Part shown: one piece after another, positions 31,922-55,113 of the stretch | How positions within the stretch are numbered: position 1 is the first letter of the stretch | How the letters are laid out: every line of letters starts with the position of its first letter | Origin: Escherichia phage mogra | Sequence record: MN850579.1 | DNA length: 64,000 bases | Strand: one strand, 5' to 3' | The notes under the pieces: generated by a model | Told to the model about the DNA's origin: nothing | Database searches by the model: none | What the model saw: the letters and a program-made list of their open reading frames with translations, nothing else | Translations under genes and position numbers: made by a program

Positions 31922-32395
31922 ATGTTATTATCAGGCGCAAAATATAAAGAAGAAAAACAAAAATTTTATGATGCACAGAACGGTAAGTGTCCTATTTGCC
32001 ACCGTGAATTAGACCCTGATGTTCAAGGTAACCATCTTGACCACGACCACGAATTAAACGGGCCAAAAGCTGGTAAGGTTCGTGGTTTACTATGTAACCT
32101 GTGCAATGCAGCAGAAGGCCAAATGAAGCATAAGTTCAACCGTTCTGGTCTTAAAGGTCAAAACGTTGATTACCTCGAATGGCTTGAATCTCTTCTTGCT
32201 TATTTGAAACAAGATTATTCTGATAATAATATCCATCCTAATTTTGTTGGAGATAAATCAAAGGAATTTTCTCGTTTAGGAAAAGAGGAAATGATGTCCG
32301 AGATGCTTCAAAGAGGATTTGAATATAATGAATCTGATACTAAAACACAATTAATAGCTTCATTCAAAAAGCAGCTTAGAAAGAGTTTAAAATGA
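31922..32395 (+). CDS. 49: recombination endonuclease VII gp49
   Basis: KCPICHREL..HLDHDHELNGPKAGKVRGLLCNLCN; near-identical to T4 endo VII. Confidence 0.92.
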   Translation: MLLSGAKYKEEKQKFYDAQNGKCPICHRELDPDVQGNHLDHDHELNGPKAGKVRGLLCNLCNAAEGQMKHKFNRSGLKGQNVDYLEWLESLLAYLKQDYSDNNIHPNFVGDKSKEFSRLGKEEMMSEMLQRGFEYNESDTKTQLIASFKKQLRKSLK

Positions 32396-34209
32396 AAATT
32401 GAAAAAGAAATTGAAGGATTAATTTATAAAACTAATAAAGATCTTTTGAACGAGAATGCTAATAAAGATTCTCGTGTTTTTCCAACTCAACGGGACCTTA
32501 TGGCTGGTATTGTGTCTAAGCACATTGCCAAAAATATGGTCCCGTCTTTTATTATGAATGCGCATGAAAGCGGAATCATTCACATGCATGATATTGATTA
32601 TTCTCCTGCTCTTCCGTTTACCAATTGCTGTTTAGTCGATTTAAAGGGGATGCTTGAGAATGGATTTAAATTAGGCAATGCTCAAATTGAAACGCCTAAA
32701 TCTATTGGCGTTGCTACTGCAATTATGGCACAAATTACCGCACAAGTTGCTTCACACCAGTATGGCGGAACTACATTTGCGAATGTCGATAAAGTTCTTT
32801 CTCCTTATGTTAAACGCACATACGCTAAACATATTGAAGATGCAGAAAAATGGCAAATCGCTGATGCGTTGAATTATGCTCAATCCAAAACAGAAAAAGA
32901 TGTCTATGACGCGTTCCAAGCTTATGAATATGAAGTAAATACTCTCTTTAGTTCAAACGGACAAACGCCTTTTGTAACAATTACATTTGGTACGGGAACT
33001 GACTGGACTGAACGAATGATTCAGAAGGCAATTCTTAAAAACCGCATTAAAGGTCTTGGTCGTGATGGAATAACTCCTATTTTTCCTAAACTTGTTATGT
33101 TTGTTGAAGAAGGTGTTAATCTTTATAAAGATGATCCAAACTATGATATTAAACAACTTGCGTTAGAATGTGCAAGCAAAAGAATGTATCCTGACATTAT
33201 TTCGGTTAAGAATAATAAAGCTATTACCGGTTCTTCAGTTCCTGTTTCTCCGATGGGTTGCCGTAGTTTTTTGAGTGTGTGGAAAGATTCGACTGGTAAT
33301 GAAATTCTTGATGGACGTAATAATCTTGGTGTTGTAACACTGAATCTTCCTCGTATCGCATTAGATTCTTATATTGGAACACAGTTCAATGAACAGAAAT
33401 TTGTTGAGCTATTTAACGAACGAATGGACCTGTGTTTTGAAGCCTTGATGTGTAGAATTAGTTCTTTAAAGGGTGTTAAAGCGACTGTTGCTCCTATTCT
33501 TTACCAAGAAGGTGCATTCGGTGTTCGTCTTAAACCTGATGACGATATAATTGAGTTATTTAAAAACGGTAGAAGTTCAGTGTCTTTGGGATACATTGGT
33601 ATTCACGAATTGAATATTCTTGTCGGTCGTGATATTGGGCAAGAAATTTTAACTAAAATGAATGCTCATCTTAAACAGTGGACTGAAAGAACCGGATTTG
33701 CTTTTAGTTTATATTCTACTCCTGCTGAAAACCTTTGTTATCGCTTCTGTAAACTTGATACAGAAAAATATGGAAGTGTAAAGGATGTTACAGATAAAGG
33801 CTGGTACACTAACAGTTTCCATGTTTCAGTAGAAGAAAATATTACTCCGTTTGAAAAAATTTCTCGTGAAGCTCCTTATCATTTCATAGCGACCGGCGGT
33901 CACATTTCTTATGTTGAACTTCCAGATATGAAAAACAATTTAAAGGGGCTTGAGGCCGTCTGGGATTATGCTGCACAACATTTAGATTATTTTGGTGTTA
34001 ATATGCCAGTGGATAAATGTTTTACATGTGGAAGTACCCATGAAATGACTCCTACTGAAAATGGATTTGTTTGTTCAGTTTGCGGAGAAACTGATCCTAA
34101 AAAGATGAACACAATAAGAAGAACATGTGGTTATTTGGGAAATCCGAACGAACGCGGATTTAATCTCGGTAAAAATAAAGAAATCATGCATAGGGTTAAA
34201 CACCAATGA
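32392..34209 (+). CDS. nrdD: anaerobic ribonucleoside-triphosphate reductase NrdD
   Basis: 605 aa; C-terminal glycyl radical motif RRTCGY and CxxC zinc site; uninterrupted (no intron). Confidence 0.93.
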   Translation: MKIEKEIEGLIYKTNKDLLNENANKDSRVFPTQRDLMAGIVSKHIAKNMVPSFIMNAHESGIIHMHDIDYSPALPFTNCCLVDLKGMLENGFKLGNAQIETPKSIGVATAIMAQITAQVASHQYGGTTFANVDKVLSPYVKRTYAKHIEDAEKWQIADALNYAQSKTEKDVYDAFQAYEYEVNTLFSSNGQTPFVTITFGTGTDWTERMIQKAILKNRIKGLGRDGITPIFPKLVMFVEEGVNLYKDDPNYDIKQLALECASKRMYPDIISVKNNKAITGSSVPVSPMGCRSFLSVWKDSTGNEILDGRNNLGVVTLNLPRIALDSYIGTQFNEQKFVELFNERMDLCFEALMCRISSLKGVKATVAPILYQEGAFGVRLKPDDDIIELFKNGRSSVSLGYIGIHELNILVGRDIGQEILTKMNAHLKQWTERTGFAFSLYSTPAENLCYRFCKLDTEKYGSVKDVTDKGWYTNSFHVSVEENITPFEKISREAPYHFIATGGHISYVELPDMKNNLKGLEAVWDYAAQHLDYFGVNMPVDKCFTCGSTHEMTPTENGFVCSVCGETDPKKMNTIRRTCGYLGNPNERGFNLGKNKEIMHRVKHQ

Positions 34210-34676
34210 ATTATGATAGATTTTATCCTTGCGATTTTGTGAATGGCCCTGGATGCAGGGTCGTTCTTTTCGTTACGGGTTGTTTGCATAAATGCGAAGG
34301 GTGTTATAATAAATCAACATGGAATGCTAGAAATGGTATTCCATTCACTGGTGAAACACTAGAACAATTAATTGAATGTTTGAATAATGATTATATAGAA
34401 GGATTAACTATAACCGGAGGTGACCCTCTCTATCCTGATAACCGAGATGTTATTCATTGCATTGTTCAAACAGTAAAAAATCTTTATCCCAATAAAAGCA
34501 TTTGGTTGTGGACAGGATATAAGTTTGAAGATATTAAACAACTAGAAATGCTTAAATATGTTGATGTTATTATTGATGGGAAGTATGAGAAAAATCTTCC
34601 GACCAAAAAGCTGTGGCGAGGATCAGATAATCAGCGGCTTTGGTCAAATACCGATGGGGTGTGGAAACATGATTAA
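34206..34676 (+). CDS. nrdG: anaerobic RNR activating protein NrdG (radical SAM)
   Basis: CLHKCEGC motif; ATGA coupling to nrdD. Confidence 0.88.
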   Translation: MNYDRFYPCDFVNGPGCRVVLFVTGCLHKCEGCYNKSTWNARNGIPFTGETLEQLIECLNNDYIEGLTITGGDPLYPDNRDVIHCIVQTVKNLYPNKSIWLWTGYKFEDIKQLEMLKYVDVIIDGKYEKNLPTKKLWRGSDNQRLWSNTDGVWKHD

Positions 34677-48559: not shown

Positions 48560-49195
48560 ATGAAAACTACACCAATCACTATCGCTATTGACGCAATTGT
48601 AAAACAAGCTTCATCTCTTGCCACTATGGCTAAAGTAATTAGTCAAAACCATGCTCGTTATAATGCTATTCTAGAAACTCTTCGACGCCCTGGACTTAGT
48701 AATTATGAAAGCCGGGTAATTATTACAGGTGTTGGTAAGAATGCTAATATCGCAACTAAAGCTTCCGAGACTTTTGCTTCACTAGGTATTCCTAGCATGT
48801 ATTTGAATACCGGGCATTATTCTCATGGTGACGCAGGATTTATTGCACCTAATGATGTATTAGTTCACATCAGTCGTTCTGGTAAGACTGAAGAAATGAT
48901 AGGTGTTGCTAAACATCTTCGTATGATTCGTCCTCAGGTTAAACAGATTCTGTTACATTGTAACCCTGACATTCCACAAGAATACGAAGCTCTTTTTGAT
49001 TATACGTTCTGTACCGGTATCGCGGTAGAAGTTGACGAGAACTCTTTAGCTCCGACAATGTCTACTACATTGTTGTTAGCGCTTATCGATACGTTCGCTA
49101 TCAACCTTTCGTCTGAACGTGGATTTACCTCTAATGATTTCCTTAAGTTCCATCCAGGCGGTGCACTAGGTGCCATGTTACGAGGCGAACAATGA
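48560..49195 (+). CDS. SIS-domain sugar-phosphate isomerase, arabinose-5-phosphate isomerase-like
   Basis: ITGVGKNANIATKASETFASLGIP and ISRSGKTEE resemble KdsD/GutQ-type SIS motifs. Confidence 0.7.
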   Translation: MKTTPITIAIDAIVKQASSLATMAKVISQNHARYNAILETLRRPGLSNYESRVIITGVGKNANIATKASETFASLGIPSMYLNTGHYSHGDAGFIAPNDVLVHISRSGKTEEMIGVAKHLRMIRPQVKQILLHCNPDIPQEYEALFDYTFCTGIAVEVDENSLAPTMSTTLLLALIDTFAINLSSERGFTSNDFLKFHPGGALGAMLRGEQ

Positions 49196-51062: not shown

Positions 51063-51448
51063 TGCACCGCGTAGAAAACATGCTTAATCTTTGTTTTGAT
51101 GTCGATGATTGTATAACAGAGTGGAATAACAATCGTGATTACGTGAACTTCAAGCCAGACGTCGAAATGGTGTCTGCCATTAATGCCCTGTATGATGCAG
51201 GGCATACCATAACGCTTTACACTGCTCGCGGTATGAAGTCAGTCGGTCCTGGTCGTATAGCAATTGACATTCTCCCAAGTCTGATTCAGAACTTGGCAAA
51301 CATTGGCTTGAAGTACCATAATTTGCTAACACATAAACCAGTATATGATTGGATTATCGACGACAAAGCTATGCGTCCTGACGAATTCAAAGCTCTTATG
51401 AATAAAGGCGAATTCGAAACATTTAAATCATATAAACCGAATCTATAA
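51062..51448 (+). CDS. HAD-superfamily phosphatase (small, capless)
   Basis: Motif I FDVDDCIT, motif II ITLYTAR, Lys and WIIDDKA motif IV; TAATG coupling to upstream gene. Confidence 0.6.
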   Translation: MHRVENMLNLCFDVDDCITEWNNNRDYVNFKPDVEMVSAINALYDAGHTITLYTARGMKSVGPGRIAIDILPSLIQNLANIGLKYHNLLTHKPVYDWIIDDKAMRPDEFKALMNKGEFETFKSYKPNL

Positions 51449-51508
51449 TAATTTAAGTAAGACCTGCAAAAAAAAACCATCGCATCAATTAACGCGAGAT
51501 GCAAAAAA

Positions 51509-52669
51509 ATGAATACTTTTAAAATCGGAACGAATTTTGATTTAGCTCTTCTTGATAAAATCGTAGAGCTCAATAAAACTTATCCTAATAGCTTGATAAA
51601 TGAAGTATACGGCTCTACAAGAGAAATGGCTTTTGTAGCAGCCAGACCTGATTTTAGGCTTCCTGACATTGACAAAAAGATGTTAGAAGATTATGTTAAA
51701 CGTTGTAACGAATTAGGTATTTGCTTTAACTATACACTCAACACGATAAATCCTGGTTCAAAAAGAGAACTAGTTGAGTGGAAGAAGAAAGCTATTCAGG
51801 ATTATGTTCAGTATCTTTGGTCAATAGGCGTATGGCGTATTACTATCGCTAACCCTGTTGTTATGGAAATTGTTCGTGAAGTCAATAAAGACATTGAGAT
51901 TGAAGTTTCAACAATTCTACATGTCGATGCTGTAACTCAAATCAAATACTTGCATGACCAGTATAATATCAAAAAGGTCTGCTGTGGAATTCATAAGAAC
52001 CGTTCAGTTTCTTTCCTGAAGCGTGCAGCAGAGTTTTGCAATAAGAACAATATAATATTTGAAGTTCTTGTAAATGAGTTCTGTTCTAATGCTGGTAAAG
52101 GGTATACAACACATTGTAGCTATCGTGACTCTTGCTATATTTTCCATAGTACTGATGTTACAGCTGATGATGCTAAATCCTTAAACGGATATCCAATGCA
52201 GCACTGTATTAAAGCTCGTGATACAGACCCATTTAACTGGTTGAGAACTCGTTTTGTTCGTCCTCAAGATTTGAAACTTTATAATGATATCGGTATCACT
52301 CAATTCAAAGTTTCAGGACGTACAGGTAGCACAGACTACATTTTGAAAGTTCTTGAAGCATACGCTTCTGAAAAGTTTGAAGGTAATTTGTTAGAACTGT
52401 GGAAGCCTTTAGAGACTATTTTCACTCTTGAAAACGAAACTGAGTTTTCACATACAGTAAATATTGAAACCTCTTTGTTAGATGGCTTTTTAGAAAAAAG
52501 GTGGTTCAGACATCCAGATTTCGATTGTGCTAATGAAATCTGCGGGACGACGTGTACATATTGTGAAAGATATTATAAACGTCAATTATCTAAAAACGGG
52601 TTAGCAGAAAACTCTATATCTATTATTGATATAACTAACTCTGATGACGCTTTGAGGTACCCGGAATGA
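51509..52669 (+). CDS. peptidase U32-family-like protein (family includes O2-independent hydroxylases)
   Basis: EVYGS, FVAARPDF..LEDYVKRCNELGICFNYTLN, NEFCSNAGKG..HCSY Cys-rich signature and FKVSGRTGS (compare KIEGR) resemble U32 family; by eye only. Confidence 0.35.
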   Translation: MNTFKIGTNFDLALLDKIVELNKTYPNSLINEVYGSTREMAFVAARPDFRLPDIDKKMLEDYVKRCNELGICFNYTLNTINPGSKRELVEWKKKAIQDYVQYLWSIGVWRITIANPVVMEIVREVNKDIEIEVSTILHVDAVTQIKYLHDQYNIKKVCCGIHKNRSVSFLKRAAEFCNKNNIIFEVLVNEFCSNAGKGYTTHCSYRDSCYIFHSTDVTADDAKSLNGYPMQHCIKARDTDPFNWLRTRFVRPQDLKLYNDIGITQFKVSGRTGSTDYILKVLEAYASEKFEGNLLELWKPLETIFTLENETEFSHTVNIETSLLDGFLEKRWFRHPDFDCANEICGTTCTYCERYYKRQLSKNGLAENSISIIDITNSDDALRYPE

Positions 52670-52905
52670 TTTCTAGAAAAACTTTTAACCACCGACTTAA
52701 TGAAGAGATTTTGACTATGAAACTGAACACTAATGAACAAATTCTTAAAAAGGCCCTGATGGGCCTGTTTGAAACTAAAGCGGCTAAAGTGATTAAAGAA
52801 CCTGTTCAATTGGAATACTACGCTGATGCATTTCTTCATAGTGTTCTTGGAAGTATCGATGCTGAATCTTTACGTTATATCAACATTGTCAAGAAATTCA
52901 AATAA
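52666..52905 (+). CDS. hypothetical protein
   Basis: ATGA overlap with U32-like gene. Confidence 0.5.
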   Translation: MISRKTFNHRLNEEILTMKLNTNEQILKKALMGLFETKAAKVIKEPVQLEYYADAFLHSVLGSIDAESLRYINIVKKFK

Positions 52906-52947
52906 GCTTTACGAATTGAGTATATAATAAATTGTATTGAGGTAAAC

Positions 52948-53664
52948 ATGGGAAAACATAACACAATGAAATATATCAAAGCCGCAGATTTTCAAACCGC
53001 ATTTAAAGCAGTCAATCGTGAAATTTTAGAAAACCCGGAATTCGTAACTGATTCTCGTATTGGACGTTGTAATGAAATTGGGTCTATGACAGTAGTTGTT
53101 GACACTCCATCATCATTCAAAATGACCGACCCACGTATTAACCGCATCTCTTATGAATATGCCGAAGACTTCTGGAAGTTTATGATTTCCGGTGGTACCA
53201 ACGCAGAAGAAGCGTTTAAGGCATATCCTAATGTCGCTAAATTTATTTCTAAACCAAAATCAGATGTTTTGCCGGCGAACTTCAACACTTTCTATGGTCC
53301 TCGCATTGCGGCCCAATTACCAGCTCTTCTAAAAGAACTTAAAGAGAAGCCTAACTCTCGAAGAGTTGTGTTCCAAATTCTAGAAAGTTCTGATCAGGCT
53401 TTGCTTGATTCGGACGAAACGCTTGAATATCCATGTACTGACTCAGTGACTTATTATATTCGTGATGGTAAGCTTTATACCCACTGTCATATGCGTTCTC
53501 AGAACTGTGCTGTTGTTATGCAGTTGGATTTTTATCTCCAAGGAAAATTACTTCATTATATCGCTAACGAATGTGGTGTAGAAGTTGGTGATTATACTCA
53601 TACCATGGTAAGTGCCCATGTGTTTGAACGTGATTTTGATTATGTTAAAGGATTCCTTGACTAA
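52948..53664 (+). CDS. 42: dCMP hydroxymethylase gp42 (thymidylate-synthase fold)
   Basis: TS-family motifs PNSRRVVFQ and EYPCTDSVTYY (catalytic Cys); position as T4 gene 42. Confidence 0.8.
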   Translation: MGKHNTMKYIKAADFQTAFKAVNREILENPEFVTDSRIGRCNEIGSMTVVVDTPSSFKMTDPRINRISYEYAEDFWKFMISGGTNAEEAFKAYPNVAKFISKPKSDVLPANFNTFYGPRIAAQLPALLKELKEKPNSRRVVFQILESSDQALLDSDETLEYPCTDSVTYYIRDGKLYTHCHMRSQNCAVVMQLDFYLQGKLLHYIANECGVEVGDYTHTMVSAHVFERDFDYVKGFLD

Positions 53665-54564: not shown

Positions 54565-55113
54565 ATGGCTAAAATTATTTTAGTAGATGGCCCGGATAAT
54601 GCCGGTAAAACAACTTTCATTAATGACATAATGGAAATTAGTGAAAGATATGTAAAGATTGATTTCCCTAAACGAACAGTTGATGGACGTTTCGATGTTA
54701 AGTCTCGAAATGAAGTTGGTTGTTTCGAAACGATGTTGAATTATTTAGACCCTACTAAGATTTATCTGTTAGACCGTGGATATATTAGTAACTGGGTTTA
54801 TGGACGTATTCGACAAGATGCGGACTCTGTTCTTGATGTTTATGAGCAGGATTATGTTCGTCTTTGCCAAAACCATGATGTGTTCACAATTATTTTAACA
54901 CGTAACGAAATGACTGAAAGTTTTGAAGACGACCTTATTACTTTGTCTTCATTCGGTTTTAATACAGTCATTTCACATTTTGAAGAGTTTGCAATTCATA
55001 ACAAAATCCAAACGTATCAATTACTTAATCATGATGGTGCTAACAAAGTTATAGGATTTAATGCAAGCGAACGTAATGGTTTGATTACAGAAATCATCAA
55101 ATGGGCTCGTTAA
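54565..55113 (+). CDS. P-loop kinase (nucleotide or sugar kinase-like)
   Basis: Walker A VDGPDNAGKTT; LDRGY (DRY-like) motif; 182 aa. Confidence 0.6.
   Translation: MAKIILVDGPDNAGKTTFINDIMEISERYVKIDFPKRTVDGRFDVKSRNEVGCFETMLNYLDPTKIYLLDRGYISNWVYGRIRQDADSVLDVYEQDYVRLCQNHDVFTIILTRNEMTESFEDDLITLSSFGFNTVISHFEEFAIHNKIQTYQLLNHDGANKVIGFNASERNGLITEIIKWAR

Follow-up and report, generated by a model that had tools for sequence, protein, structure and literature searches.

Hydroxylases of the U32 family are a recently recognized enzyme class. The U32 proteins UbiU and UbiV, TrhP, and RlhA all need prephenate, which has been proposed to be the donor of the oxygen atom (PMC10990095, PMC6599085). UbiU and UbiV are Fe−S proteins that form a heterodimer with two clusters, function with UbiT, and hydroxylate ubiquinone without O2, a task that the flavin monooxygenases UbiI, UbiH, and UbiF also perform, but with O2. 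TrhP forms ho5U34 in tRNA, a product that is also made by the O2-dependent enzyme TrhO; dwellers of both oxic and anoxic environments keep both enzymes, while aerobes keep the O2-dependent one alone (PMC6599085). RlhA (E. coli YdcP) is the synthase for 5-hydroxycytidine at C2501 of 23S rRNA. In phage RB69, the DNA carries mono- and di-arabosyl-5-hydroxycytosine (5hoC), with the sugar bound to C5 through an ether oxygen, and gp48, a thymidylate synthase (ThyA)-like, flavin-binding protein, synthesizes 5-hydroxy-dCMP with an oxygen atom that comes from O2, as seen by 18O2 labeling (PMC13326640). Here we analyze a gene for a U32-family protein that lies close to the gene for such a ThyA-like enzyme in Escherichia phage mogra (sequence record MN850579.1; the whole 64,000-nt stretch of DNA analyzed is called the window below). 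We regard it as an even call that this protein would be an O2-independent, prephenate-dependent dCMP 5-hydroxylase that duplicates the ThyA-like enzyme.

The window phage belongs to the RB69-like T-even phages of the genus Mosigvirus. Over a 6.7-kb stretch around its U32 gene, it shares 98.5% identity with Escherichia phage vB_EcoM-172859UKE1 and Shigella phage JK45; for the BASEL phage Bas46, the value is 98.1%. Public records label the gene “peptidase family U32 protein” or “collagenase-like protease,” and that of Bas46 reads “putative enzyme involved in UDP-arabinose biosynthesis.” Both the gene and its assignment to the family are thus already public, and the observation itself is not new. 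In the work on RB69 DNA, the U32 protein (RB69p050) appears just in a table, as a “sugar or heterocycle reductase,” on the basis of fold matches, and the Discussion names RNA pyrimidine hydroxylation pathways without tying them to the U32 gene (PMC13326640). Our literature search found no paper that gives the gene a function, although an earlier statement may exist elsewhere; a Tn-seq preprint on LC53 and Bas46 contains no data at the level of this gene. As far as checked, the functional hypothesis put forward here is unpublished; it is specific and testable.

The phage protein is a U32-family member with nine invariant cysteines

The gene, which starts with ATG, and the conserved elements that it encodes are the following.

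51509 to 52669, + strand: U32-family open reading frame (ORF), 386 amino acids (aa), ortholog of RB69 ORF050c and Bas46_0144; proposed prephenate-dependent, O2-independent pyrimidine C5 hydroxylase
52082 to 52207, + strand: core U32 Cys/Glu segment, residues 192 to 233 (NEFC192...THC203.YRDSC209Y..H213...QHC233); candidate [4Fe-4S] ligands
52304 to 52330, + strand: FKVSGRTGS, KIEGR-like motif of the clade; aligns with UbiU VKIEGRQRS, TrhP LKIEGRTKS, and RlhA FKIEGRYKD
52526 to 52564, + strand: C-terminal CX4CX3CX2C motif (C340, C345, C349, C352); clade specific, invariant in 121 homologs

The ORF encodes a genuine member of the U32 family, as a first-pass annotation of the sequence had suggested by eye. 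Its product matches Pfam Peptidase_U32 (PF01136) with 42.2 bits (E 7.3e-11; gathering cutoff, 22.4 bits), residues 94 to 286 aligning with profile positions 2 to 192 of 233, and precomputed PF01136 matches are also present on its homologs. An AlphaFold2 model built with 81 homologs (pLDDT 92.7, pTM 0.91) has 5d88, the U32 protein Mk0906, as its top solved-structure match (E 2.3e-7; TM 0.72, normalized to the target). This is the sole U32 entry among the solved-structure matches of the model, the others being generic TIM barrels. A PDB sequence search with the single U32 sequence gave no matches, and a profile search gave only a spurious match to BIM1. The only match in NCBIfam, to the UbiU equivalog NF047963, scored 18.6 bits, below the cutoff of 440.

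Conservation was assessed in an alignment of 121 homologs with 47 to 87% identity to the window protein. All of them share nine cysteines (C158, C192, C203, C209, C233, C340, C345, C349, and C352). The Cys-rich segment pointed out in the first-pass annotation is therefore real and conserved, with C192 (NEFC), C203 (THC), C209 (DSC), and C233 (QHC) kept throughout; lack of a U32 profile match together with lack of a conserved Cys cluster had been named there as grounds for abandoning the assignment, and both features are present. TrhP residues E162, C170, and C177 are essential for ho5U34 formation (PMC6599085), and UbiU C176 is a cluster ligand (PMC10990095). All three TrhP residues have conserved counterparts in the phage protein: C203 and C209 align with C170 and C177, as well as with the RlhA core and the UbiU C176 region, and the position of E162 is taken by E190 (invariant) according to hhalign or by E185 (95%) according to MAFFT, a correspondence left ambiguous by a clade-specific insertion. 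FKVSGRTGS aligns with the KIEGR region with which it had been compared. K267, G270, R271, and T272 are invariant, while the Glu of KIEGR is replaced by Ser or Thr across the whole phage clade (FK[VI][ST]GRTG).

The CX4CX3CX2C motif, which has no aligned counterpart in the E. coli U32 paralogs, is possibly a second metal or Fe−S site; together with the NEFC insertion, it sets the clade apart from the E. coli U32 enzymes. The conserved cysteines suggest that the phage protein binds Fe−S clusters and is an iron-sulfur enzyme, and its two conserved Cys groups in one chain are reminiscent of the two clusters in the UbiU-UbiV heterodimer. UbiU-UbiV differs in having a lipid substrate, and no UbiT-like partner was found for the phage U32 protein.

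Among the four E. coli paralogs, RlhA is the best profile match (85.6% probability, E 5.5e-6, 206 columns), those of TrhP (12%), UbiU, and UbiV being far weaker. RlhA shares with the phage protein the Pfam family, the proposed hydroxylation of cytosine at C5, and the EF..C..CY..H core and FK[IV]xGR motif, which align. Full-length similarity to RlhA or TrhP is absent; the core alone aligns (query residues 53 to 285 with RlhA and 10 to 157 with TrhP). RlhA has 653 aa, extra C-terminal domains, and an rRNA substrate, whereas the much shorter phage protein has the NEFC insertion, the CX4CX3CX2C motif, and a gene context suggestive of free deoxynucleotides. It is not an RlhA ortholog.

Every characterized pyrimidine-directed U32 enzyme acts on RNA, and with RlhA as the nearest E. 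coli paralog, the phage protein could act on host RNA as RlhA (23S rRNA ho5C2501) and TrhP (tRNA ho5U34) do, thereby adjusting translation in infection. We find this quite improbable: the C-terminal regions of RlhA and TrhP are absent, with the phage protein's own four-Cys tail instead, E. coli already has RlhA and TrhP, and the genes conserved next to the U32 gene in unrelated viruses encode nucleotide kinases and homologs of DNA glycosyltransferases (see below). Hardly any credence can be given to a collagenase-like protease of the PrtC type, for which the historical family name and automated annotations alone speak. All characterized E. coli family members are implicated in hydroxylation and not in proteolysis, the gene context is one of nucleotide metabolism, and the invariant residues are Fe−S-type cysteines.

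Chorismate mutase genes accompany the U32 gene in other phages

Chorismate mutase (CM) is the enzyme that forms prephenate. Phages of the genera Kanagawavirus, Winklervirus, and Marfavirus (Enterobacter phage Entb_45, Serratia phage LC53, and Klebsiella phage PWKp16) have a CM_2 chorismate mutase encoded by the ORF that overlaps the U32 stop codon (39 to 45 bits; Pfam cutoff, 27 bits; loci L007:5658-5897, L008:5660-6004, and L009:5658-5903). A tblastn search detected CM in 54 phage records, with hosts from more than 10 genera; in the rows examined, the CM gene was located within or beside the stretch that separates the U32 gene from the ThyA-like gene. CM carriers at this place include phages of Yersinia, Proteus, Providencia, Edwardsiella, and Shewanella. 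The phage CMs keep residues R11, R28, K39, S84, and Q88 of PheA, which we take to be active-site residues of the E. coli enzyme.

Outside the T-even phages, we examined 43 loci from IMG/VR contigs, metagenome contigs, and GTDB genomes that encode a 40 to 58% identical U32 homolog; the ORFs within ~10 kb on each side of the U32 gene were analyzed by iterative search, with E. coli ThyA as an extra query. A DAHP-synthase-CM fusion or a CM is encoded beside the U32 gene in 15 of these loci. The fusion proteins (125 and 65 bits) consist of a type I DAHP synthase with a C-terminal CM and were seen next to the U32 gene at L040:7302-8357 and also in L038, L039, L042, and L052, which are viral contigs. 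From such fusions, the viruses appear to boost shikimate-pathway flux to prephenate. The CM and DAHP-synthase-CM neighbors and the prephenate dependence of its U32 relatives suggest that the phage protein would also use prephenate.

The U32 gene takes the hydroxylase position in other viruses

In the T-even cassette, the genes for the ThyA-like enzyme, a putative DNA arabinosyltransferase (a glycosyltransferase, abbreviated GT), and a thymidylate-kinase-like (Tmk-like) nucleotide kinase follow each other in this order. Among the 43 non-T-even loci, a homolog of the same GT is encoded near the U32 gene in 26, and a Tmk-like kinase gene is linked to it in 24. The three genes often stand back-to-back, for example in the order Tmk, GT, U32 (L030, L034, L036, L041, L043, and L057), while a ThyA-family gene is present in just one locus (L029) within the ~10-kb flanks. 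Thus, the U32 gene occupies the position that the hydroxylase gene has in the T-even cassette. The partners shared by these loci, a nucleotide kinase and a second enzyme that can modify a hydroxyl group, point to a mononucleotide substrate.

This arrangement bears on a possible role of the U32 protein as a redox partner of the ThyA-like flavoenzyme, for instance as a supplier of electrons to its flavin. The flavin does need a reductant, the two genes are adjacent, and the two candidate metal sites of the U32 protein would suit electron transfer. However, the U32 gene occurs without a ThyA-family gene in the ~10-kb flanks of 42 of the 43 loci, the ThyA-like enzyme functions on its own both in E. 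coli and in Acinetobacter phages, and the linkage to CM would be left unexplained. We therefore hold a partnership of this kind to be very unlikely; both it and the protease were rejected because of the gene context in the loci that have no ThyA-family gene.

Two other arrangements were also seen. On contigs that resemble megaphages and encode a DnaE-type polymerase, the U32 gene comes right after a dCMP deaminase gene, near genes for thymidylate kinase and UDG (L002:7447-9086, on a 466-kb contig, and L005:7504-9083), and a ~250-aa ORF is conserved downstream of it. A second type of module, found at L074:3044-7137 in Phocaeicola faecalis FXJYN30E22, encodes a GP88-family protein, a guanylate-kinase-SAM-methyltransferase fusion, a ~265-aa protein, and the U32 protein; the pair of methyltransferase fusion and U32 recurs in L072, L073, L070, L003, and L053. 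Speculatively, this module could indicate O-methylation of a hydroxylated nucleotide, which would give a 5-methoxypyrimidine. At L003:12160-14360, a nucleoside 2-deoxyribosyltransferase-like gene has as neighbors the genes for a radical SAM/SPASM protein and for another U32-like protein of very divergent sequence.

With dCMP deaminase encoded directly upstream in the megaphage-like contigs, the U32 protein might hydroxylate another nucleotide or position (e.g., dUMP to 5-hydroxy-dUMP, or a second site) and so add a further modification; a kinase-methyltransferase fusion and not a GT as the partner in the bacterial loci would likewise mean that the clade feeds different downstream chemistry. 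This is unlikely in our estimation, as the published RB69 nucleoside analyses give just mono- and di-arabosyl-5hoC replacing cytosine and the T-even cassette contains a single first-step GT and a single kinase. A further modification, or an action on host RNA, had been the suggestion of the first-pass annotation. With a kinase, a GT homolog, and CM as partners, usually without a ThyA-like enzyme, the same C5 hydroxylation by an O2-independent route fits better than either.

Distribution of the U32 clade over hosts and genomes

The distribution of the U32 clade was surveyed by tblastn on 50,697 phage records with two queries, the window protein and a 49% identical relative. Both queries found the clade in 221 records of T-even relatives, with the same organism tally. 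Every named host genus of these phages belongs to the Enterobacterales or is Shewanella, and no Acinetobacter or Rhizobium name occurs among the 221 records, seven minor name groups being not spelled out. The ThyA-like enzyme is encoded in 373 phage records, including those of 57 Acinetobacter and 20 Rhizobium phages; phages of both these hosts form the same base. Among ~100,000 species genomes, the U32 clade was found in seven: two of Romboutsia, one each of Erysipelotrichales, Tannerella, and Phocaeicola faecalis, and the metagenome-assembled genomes (MAGs) of a Bacillota and a BRC1 bacterium. All but the BRC1 MAG belong, as assigned, to lineages of anaerobes.

Consistently with this distribution over hosts and genomes, we propose that the activity of the phage U32 protein would be independent of O2. 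The logic would be that of TrhP and TrhO, in which an O2-dependent enzyme and a prephenate-dependent, O2-independent U32 enzyme give one 5-hydroxypyrimidine product. That pair differs in its tRNA substrate and in its O2-dependent member, which is rhodanese-like, while a flavin-dependent ThyA homolog is found here; as mentioned above, the TrhP profile match is also weak.

The arabinose pathway operates without the U32 gene in some phages

The other modification genes of the window are listed here in genomic order.

48560 to 49195, + strand: SIS-domain arabinose-5-phosphate isomerase, homolog of RB69 gp55 (Pfam SIS; PMC13326640)
49377 to 51062, + strand: bifunctional NTP-transferase/kinase, AfhE-like, homolog of RB69 gp52:53 (Pfam NTP_transferase and kinase-like matches; PMC13326640)
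51047 to 51448, + strand: HAD-like phosphatase, AfhF-like, homolog of RB69 gp51 (PMC13326640; no Pfam match)
52666 to 52905, + strand: 79-aa ORF with a 4-nt overlap between its start and the U32 stop; no Pfam match, not a chorismate mutase
52948 to 53664, + strand: ThyA-like 5-hydroxy-dCMP synthase, homolog of RB69 gp48, called “gene 42” in the first-pass annotation (Pfam Thymidylat_synt; flavin and O2 dependent, PMC13326640)
53664 to 54563, + strand: putative DNA arabinosyltransferase 1, homolog of RB69 gp46:47 (PMC13326640, Table 1)
54565 to 55113, + strand: thymidylate-kinase-like nucleotide kinase, homolog of RB69 gp45 (PMC13326640, Table 1)

The U32 ORF has the HAD-like ORF upstream and the 79-aa ORF downstream, and the latter is followed by the “gene 42” homolog. 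The phage dNMP kinase is encoded elsewhere in the window, at 1227 to 1958. The arabinose donor is made by the products of the SIS, NTP-transferase/kinase, and HAD genes, and UDP-Araf has been reconstituted with AfhE and AfhF alone (PMC13326640 and work cited therein). As the U32 gene sits between these sugar-activation genes and the ThyA-like gene, its product might be a sugar-pathway enzyme that makes or remodels the arabinose donor. The labels in Table 1 of PMC13326640 and in the Bas46 record are in line with such a role, as are the TIM-barrel fold, which resembles many sugar enzymes, and the co-occurrence of NTP-transferase/kinase, HAD, and SIS homologs in many non-T-even loci. Nevertheless, the pathway is found without the U32 gene. 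Acinetobacter phage Konradin, Pseudomonas phage PspYZU05, and the E. coli Dhakavirus Bp7 show the same gene order, NTP-transferase/kinase, HAD, ThyA-like, GT, and Tmk, with no gene, and hence no U32 gene, between the HAD and ThyA-like genes; further Acinetobacter phages that make arabinosyl-5hoC also lack the U32 gene, and DLP3 makes tri-arabosyl-5hoC without a U32 gene (PMC13326640). The U32 gene is thus not present wherever the arabinose pathway operates, and since the same sugar and GT genes do without it in these phages, it is not needed for the sugar pathway. Moreover, AfhE and AfhF account for UDP-Araf synthesis, and several U32 loci have no sugar genes, just kinase, GT, and U32 genes (L030, L034, L036, L041, L043, and L057) or dCMP deaminase and U32 genes (L002 and L005). 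A sugar role would also leave the CM linkage unexplained, and we consider it unlikely. In Bp7 (L066), which has the ThyA-like, GT, and kinase genes, the genes for the U32 protein and the SIS isomerase are both absent.

The surroundings of the U32 gene had been described in the first-pass annotation as a DNA-modification operon with a dCMP hydroxymethylase. The tight packing on one strand with modification genes is borne out. Co-transcription is a different matter, as promoter-like and terminator-like sites around the U32 gene were no more common than in shuffled sequence in a scan of the region, and we make no operon claim from these scans. A promoter-like TTTAAA-16-TATAAT at 51422 to 51449 and a hairpin with a 7-bp stem, TCGCATCAATTAACGCGA at 51480 to 51497 (+ strand), preceded by an A-run and located 11 nt upstream of the U32 start codon, are both not above the shuffled level. 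As for the enzyme, “gene 42” has turned out to correspond to the flavin- and O2-dependent 5-hydroxy-dCMP synthase in RB69-like phages, where the base is arabinosyl-5-hydroxycytosine instead of 5-hydroxymethylcytosine (hmC) (PMC13326640). The U32 gene has, as was stated, no counterpart in the hmC-glucose pathway of T4. Overall, the earlier interpretation holds in the family, the cysteines, the KIEGR-like motif, the packing, and the absent T4 counterpart and gives way in its hydroxymethylase context, its further modification or host RNA target being the less supported part.

The 79-aa ORF was considered as a degenerate chorismate mutase. This was ruled out, as it has no CM_2 match and its homolog co-occurs elsewhere with a separate CM: in Yersinia TG1, Pectobacterium PM2, and Serratia 92A1, the homolog lies between the U32 gene and a separate CM gene. 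The N-terminus of the 79-aa ORF resembles the N-terminal extension of the LC53 CM protein. The ORF is conserved in Mosigvirus and is split or truncated in some members, HY126 included; it may therefore be dispensable.

A predicted O2-independent route to 5-hydroxy-dCMP

Another pair of genes in the window bears on oxygen.

32392 to 34673, + strand: nrdD and nrdG, anaerobic ribonucleotide reductase and activase (tblastn with Bas46 NrdD and NrdG, 99% and 98% identity)

Judging from these genes, the window phage would be equipped to make deoxynucleoside triphosphates (dNTPs) without O2, which leaves the O2-dependent hydroxylation as the known step toward the modified dNTP that would fail without oxygen. 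The NrdAB and NrdDG enzymes of the T4 type, though they catalyze ribonucleotide reduction and belong to other protein families, are a precedent in that T-even phages use two enzymes of their own, one aerobic and one anaerobic, for the same step of nucleotide metabolism.

From the family, the gene linkage, and the distribution described above, we infer a substrate, a product, and a physiological role for the U32 protein. It would hydroxylate C5 of a free pyrimidine deoxynucleotide, here converting dCMP to 5-hydroxy-dCMP, with the oxygen atom drawn from prephenate and not from O2. It would thus be the anaerobic twin of the adjacent ThyA-like synthase, and its product would then enter the route already known, being phosphorylated, incorporated by the phage polymerase, and arabinosylated on the DNA. 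Its role may be to permit growth in the anoxic gut, an environment in which the O2-dependent enzyme is unable to work. The ThyA-like synthase (RB69 gp48, DLP3 gp80) has the same product and the same place in the pathway as proposed for the U32 protein, and its position is taken by the U32 gene in other viruses; it differs in its unrelated fold, its flavin cofactor, its use of O2 as the oxygen source, and in that its function has been demonstrated experimentally (PMC13326640).

For the clade as a whole, a broader proposal falls slightly short of an even chance in our judgment. The phage clade would be the first group of U32 hydroxylases acting on a free deoxynucleotide. In phages of facultative anaerobes, it would be the twin of the ThyA-like synthase, while in phages of strict anaerobes it would be the sole source of 5-hydroxypyrimidines for glycosylated and perhaps O-methylated DNA, some of these viruses bringing their own DAHP-synthase-chorismate-mutase for the oxygen donor.

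Several points weigh against these proposals. Direct hydroxylase activity has not been reconstituted in vitro even for RlhA or TrhP (PMC10990095), and our literature search found no biochemical or genetic test of the phage gene. The window phage itself has no CM, as judged from the lack of a CM_2 match and comparison of the interval between the U32 and ThyA-like genes (52905 to 52948), so that host PheA or TyrA would have to supply the prephenate. Carriage of the U32 gene is associated with the host in a contingency test (p = 2e-37), a value that rests on few evolutionary events and not on independent samples; in addition, seven host-name groups are unnamed in the summaries, and one Acinetobacter locus was checked directly. 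The U32 gene is absent from about 20% of the Enterobacterales phages that encode the ThyA-like enzyme, so that it is not obligatory in facultative-anaerobe hosts; Dhakavirus Bp7 is one such exception to the link between these hosts and U32 carriage. In the metagenomic loci, only ~10 kb of flanking sequence was seen, and a ThyA-like gene could sit elsewhere in those genomes. Finally, the U32 gene is also linked to NTP-transferase/kinase genes in 17 and to SIS genes in 9 of the 43 loci, which leaves room for a sugar role. The alternatives leave more unexplained than a prephenate-dependent dCMP hydroxylase does, because of the CM linkage and the occurrence of the U32 gene without any ThyA-family gene.

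If true, the proposal would close a gap in a newly described pathway, as the sole known phage route to 5-hydroxycytosine needs O2. Yet the coliphages in question inhabit the gut, destroy dCTP, and already have an anaerobic ribonucleotide reductase. With dCMP as a small, soluble substrate, the mechanism by which prephenate serves as the oxygen donor would become directly testable in vitro. For phage therapy and for making modified DNA in vitro, the prediction would be that modification and sensitivity to host defenses vary with oxygen. From the linked modules in phages that infect anaerobes of the Bacteroidales and Clostridia types, 5-hydroxypyrimidine-based DNA hypermodification is predicted to be widespread in anoxic microbiomes, in which searches based on ThyA would miss it.

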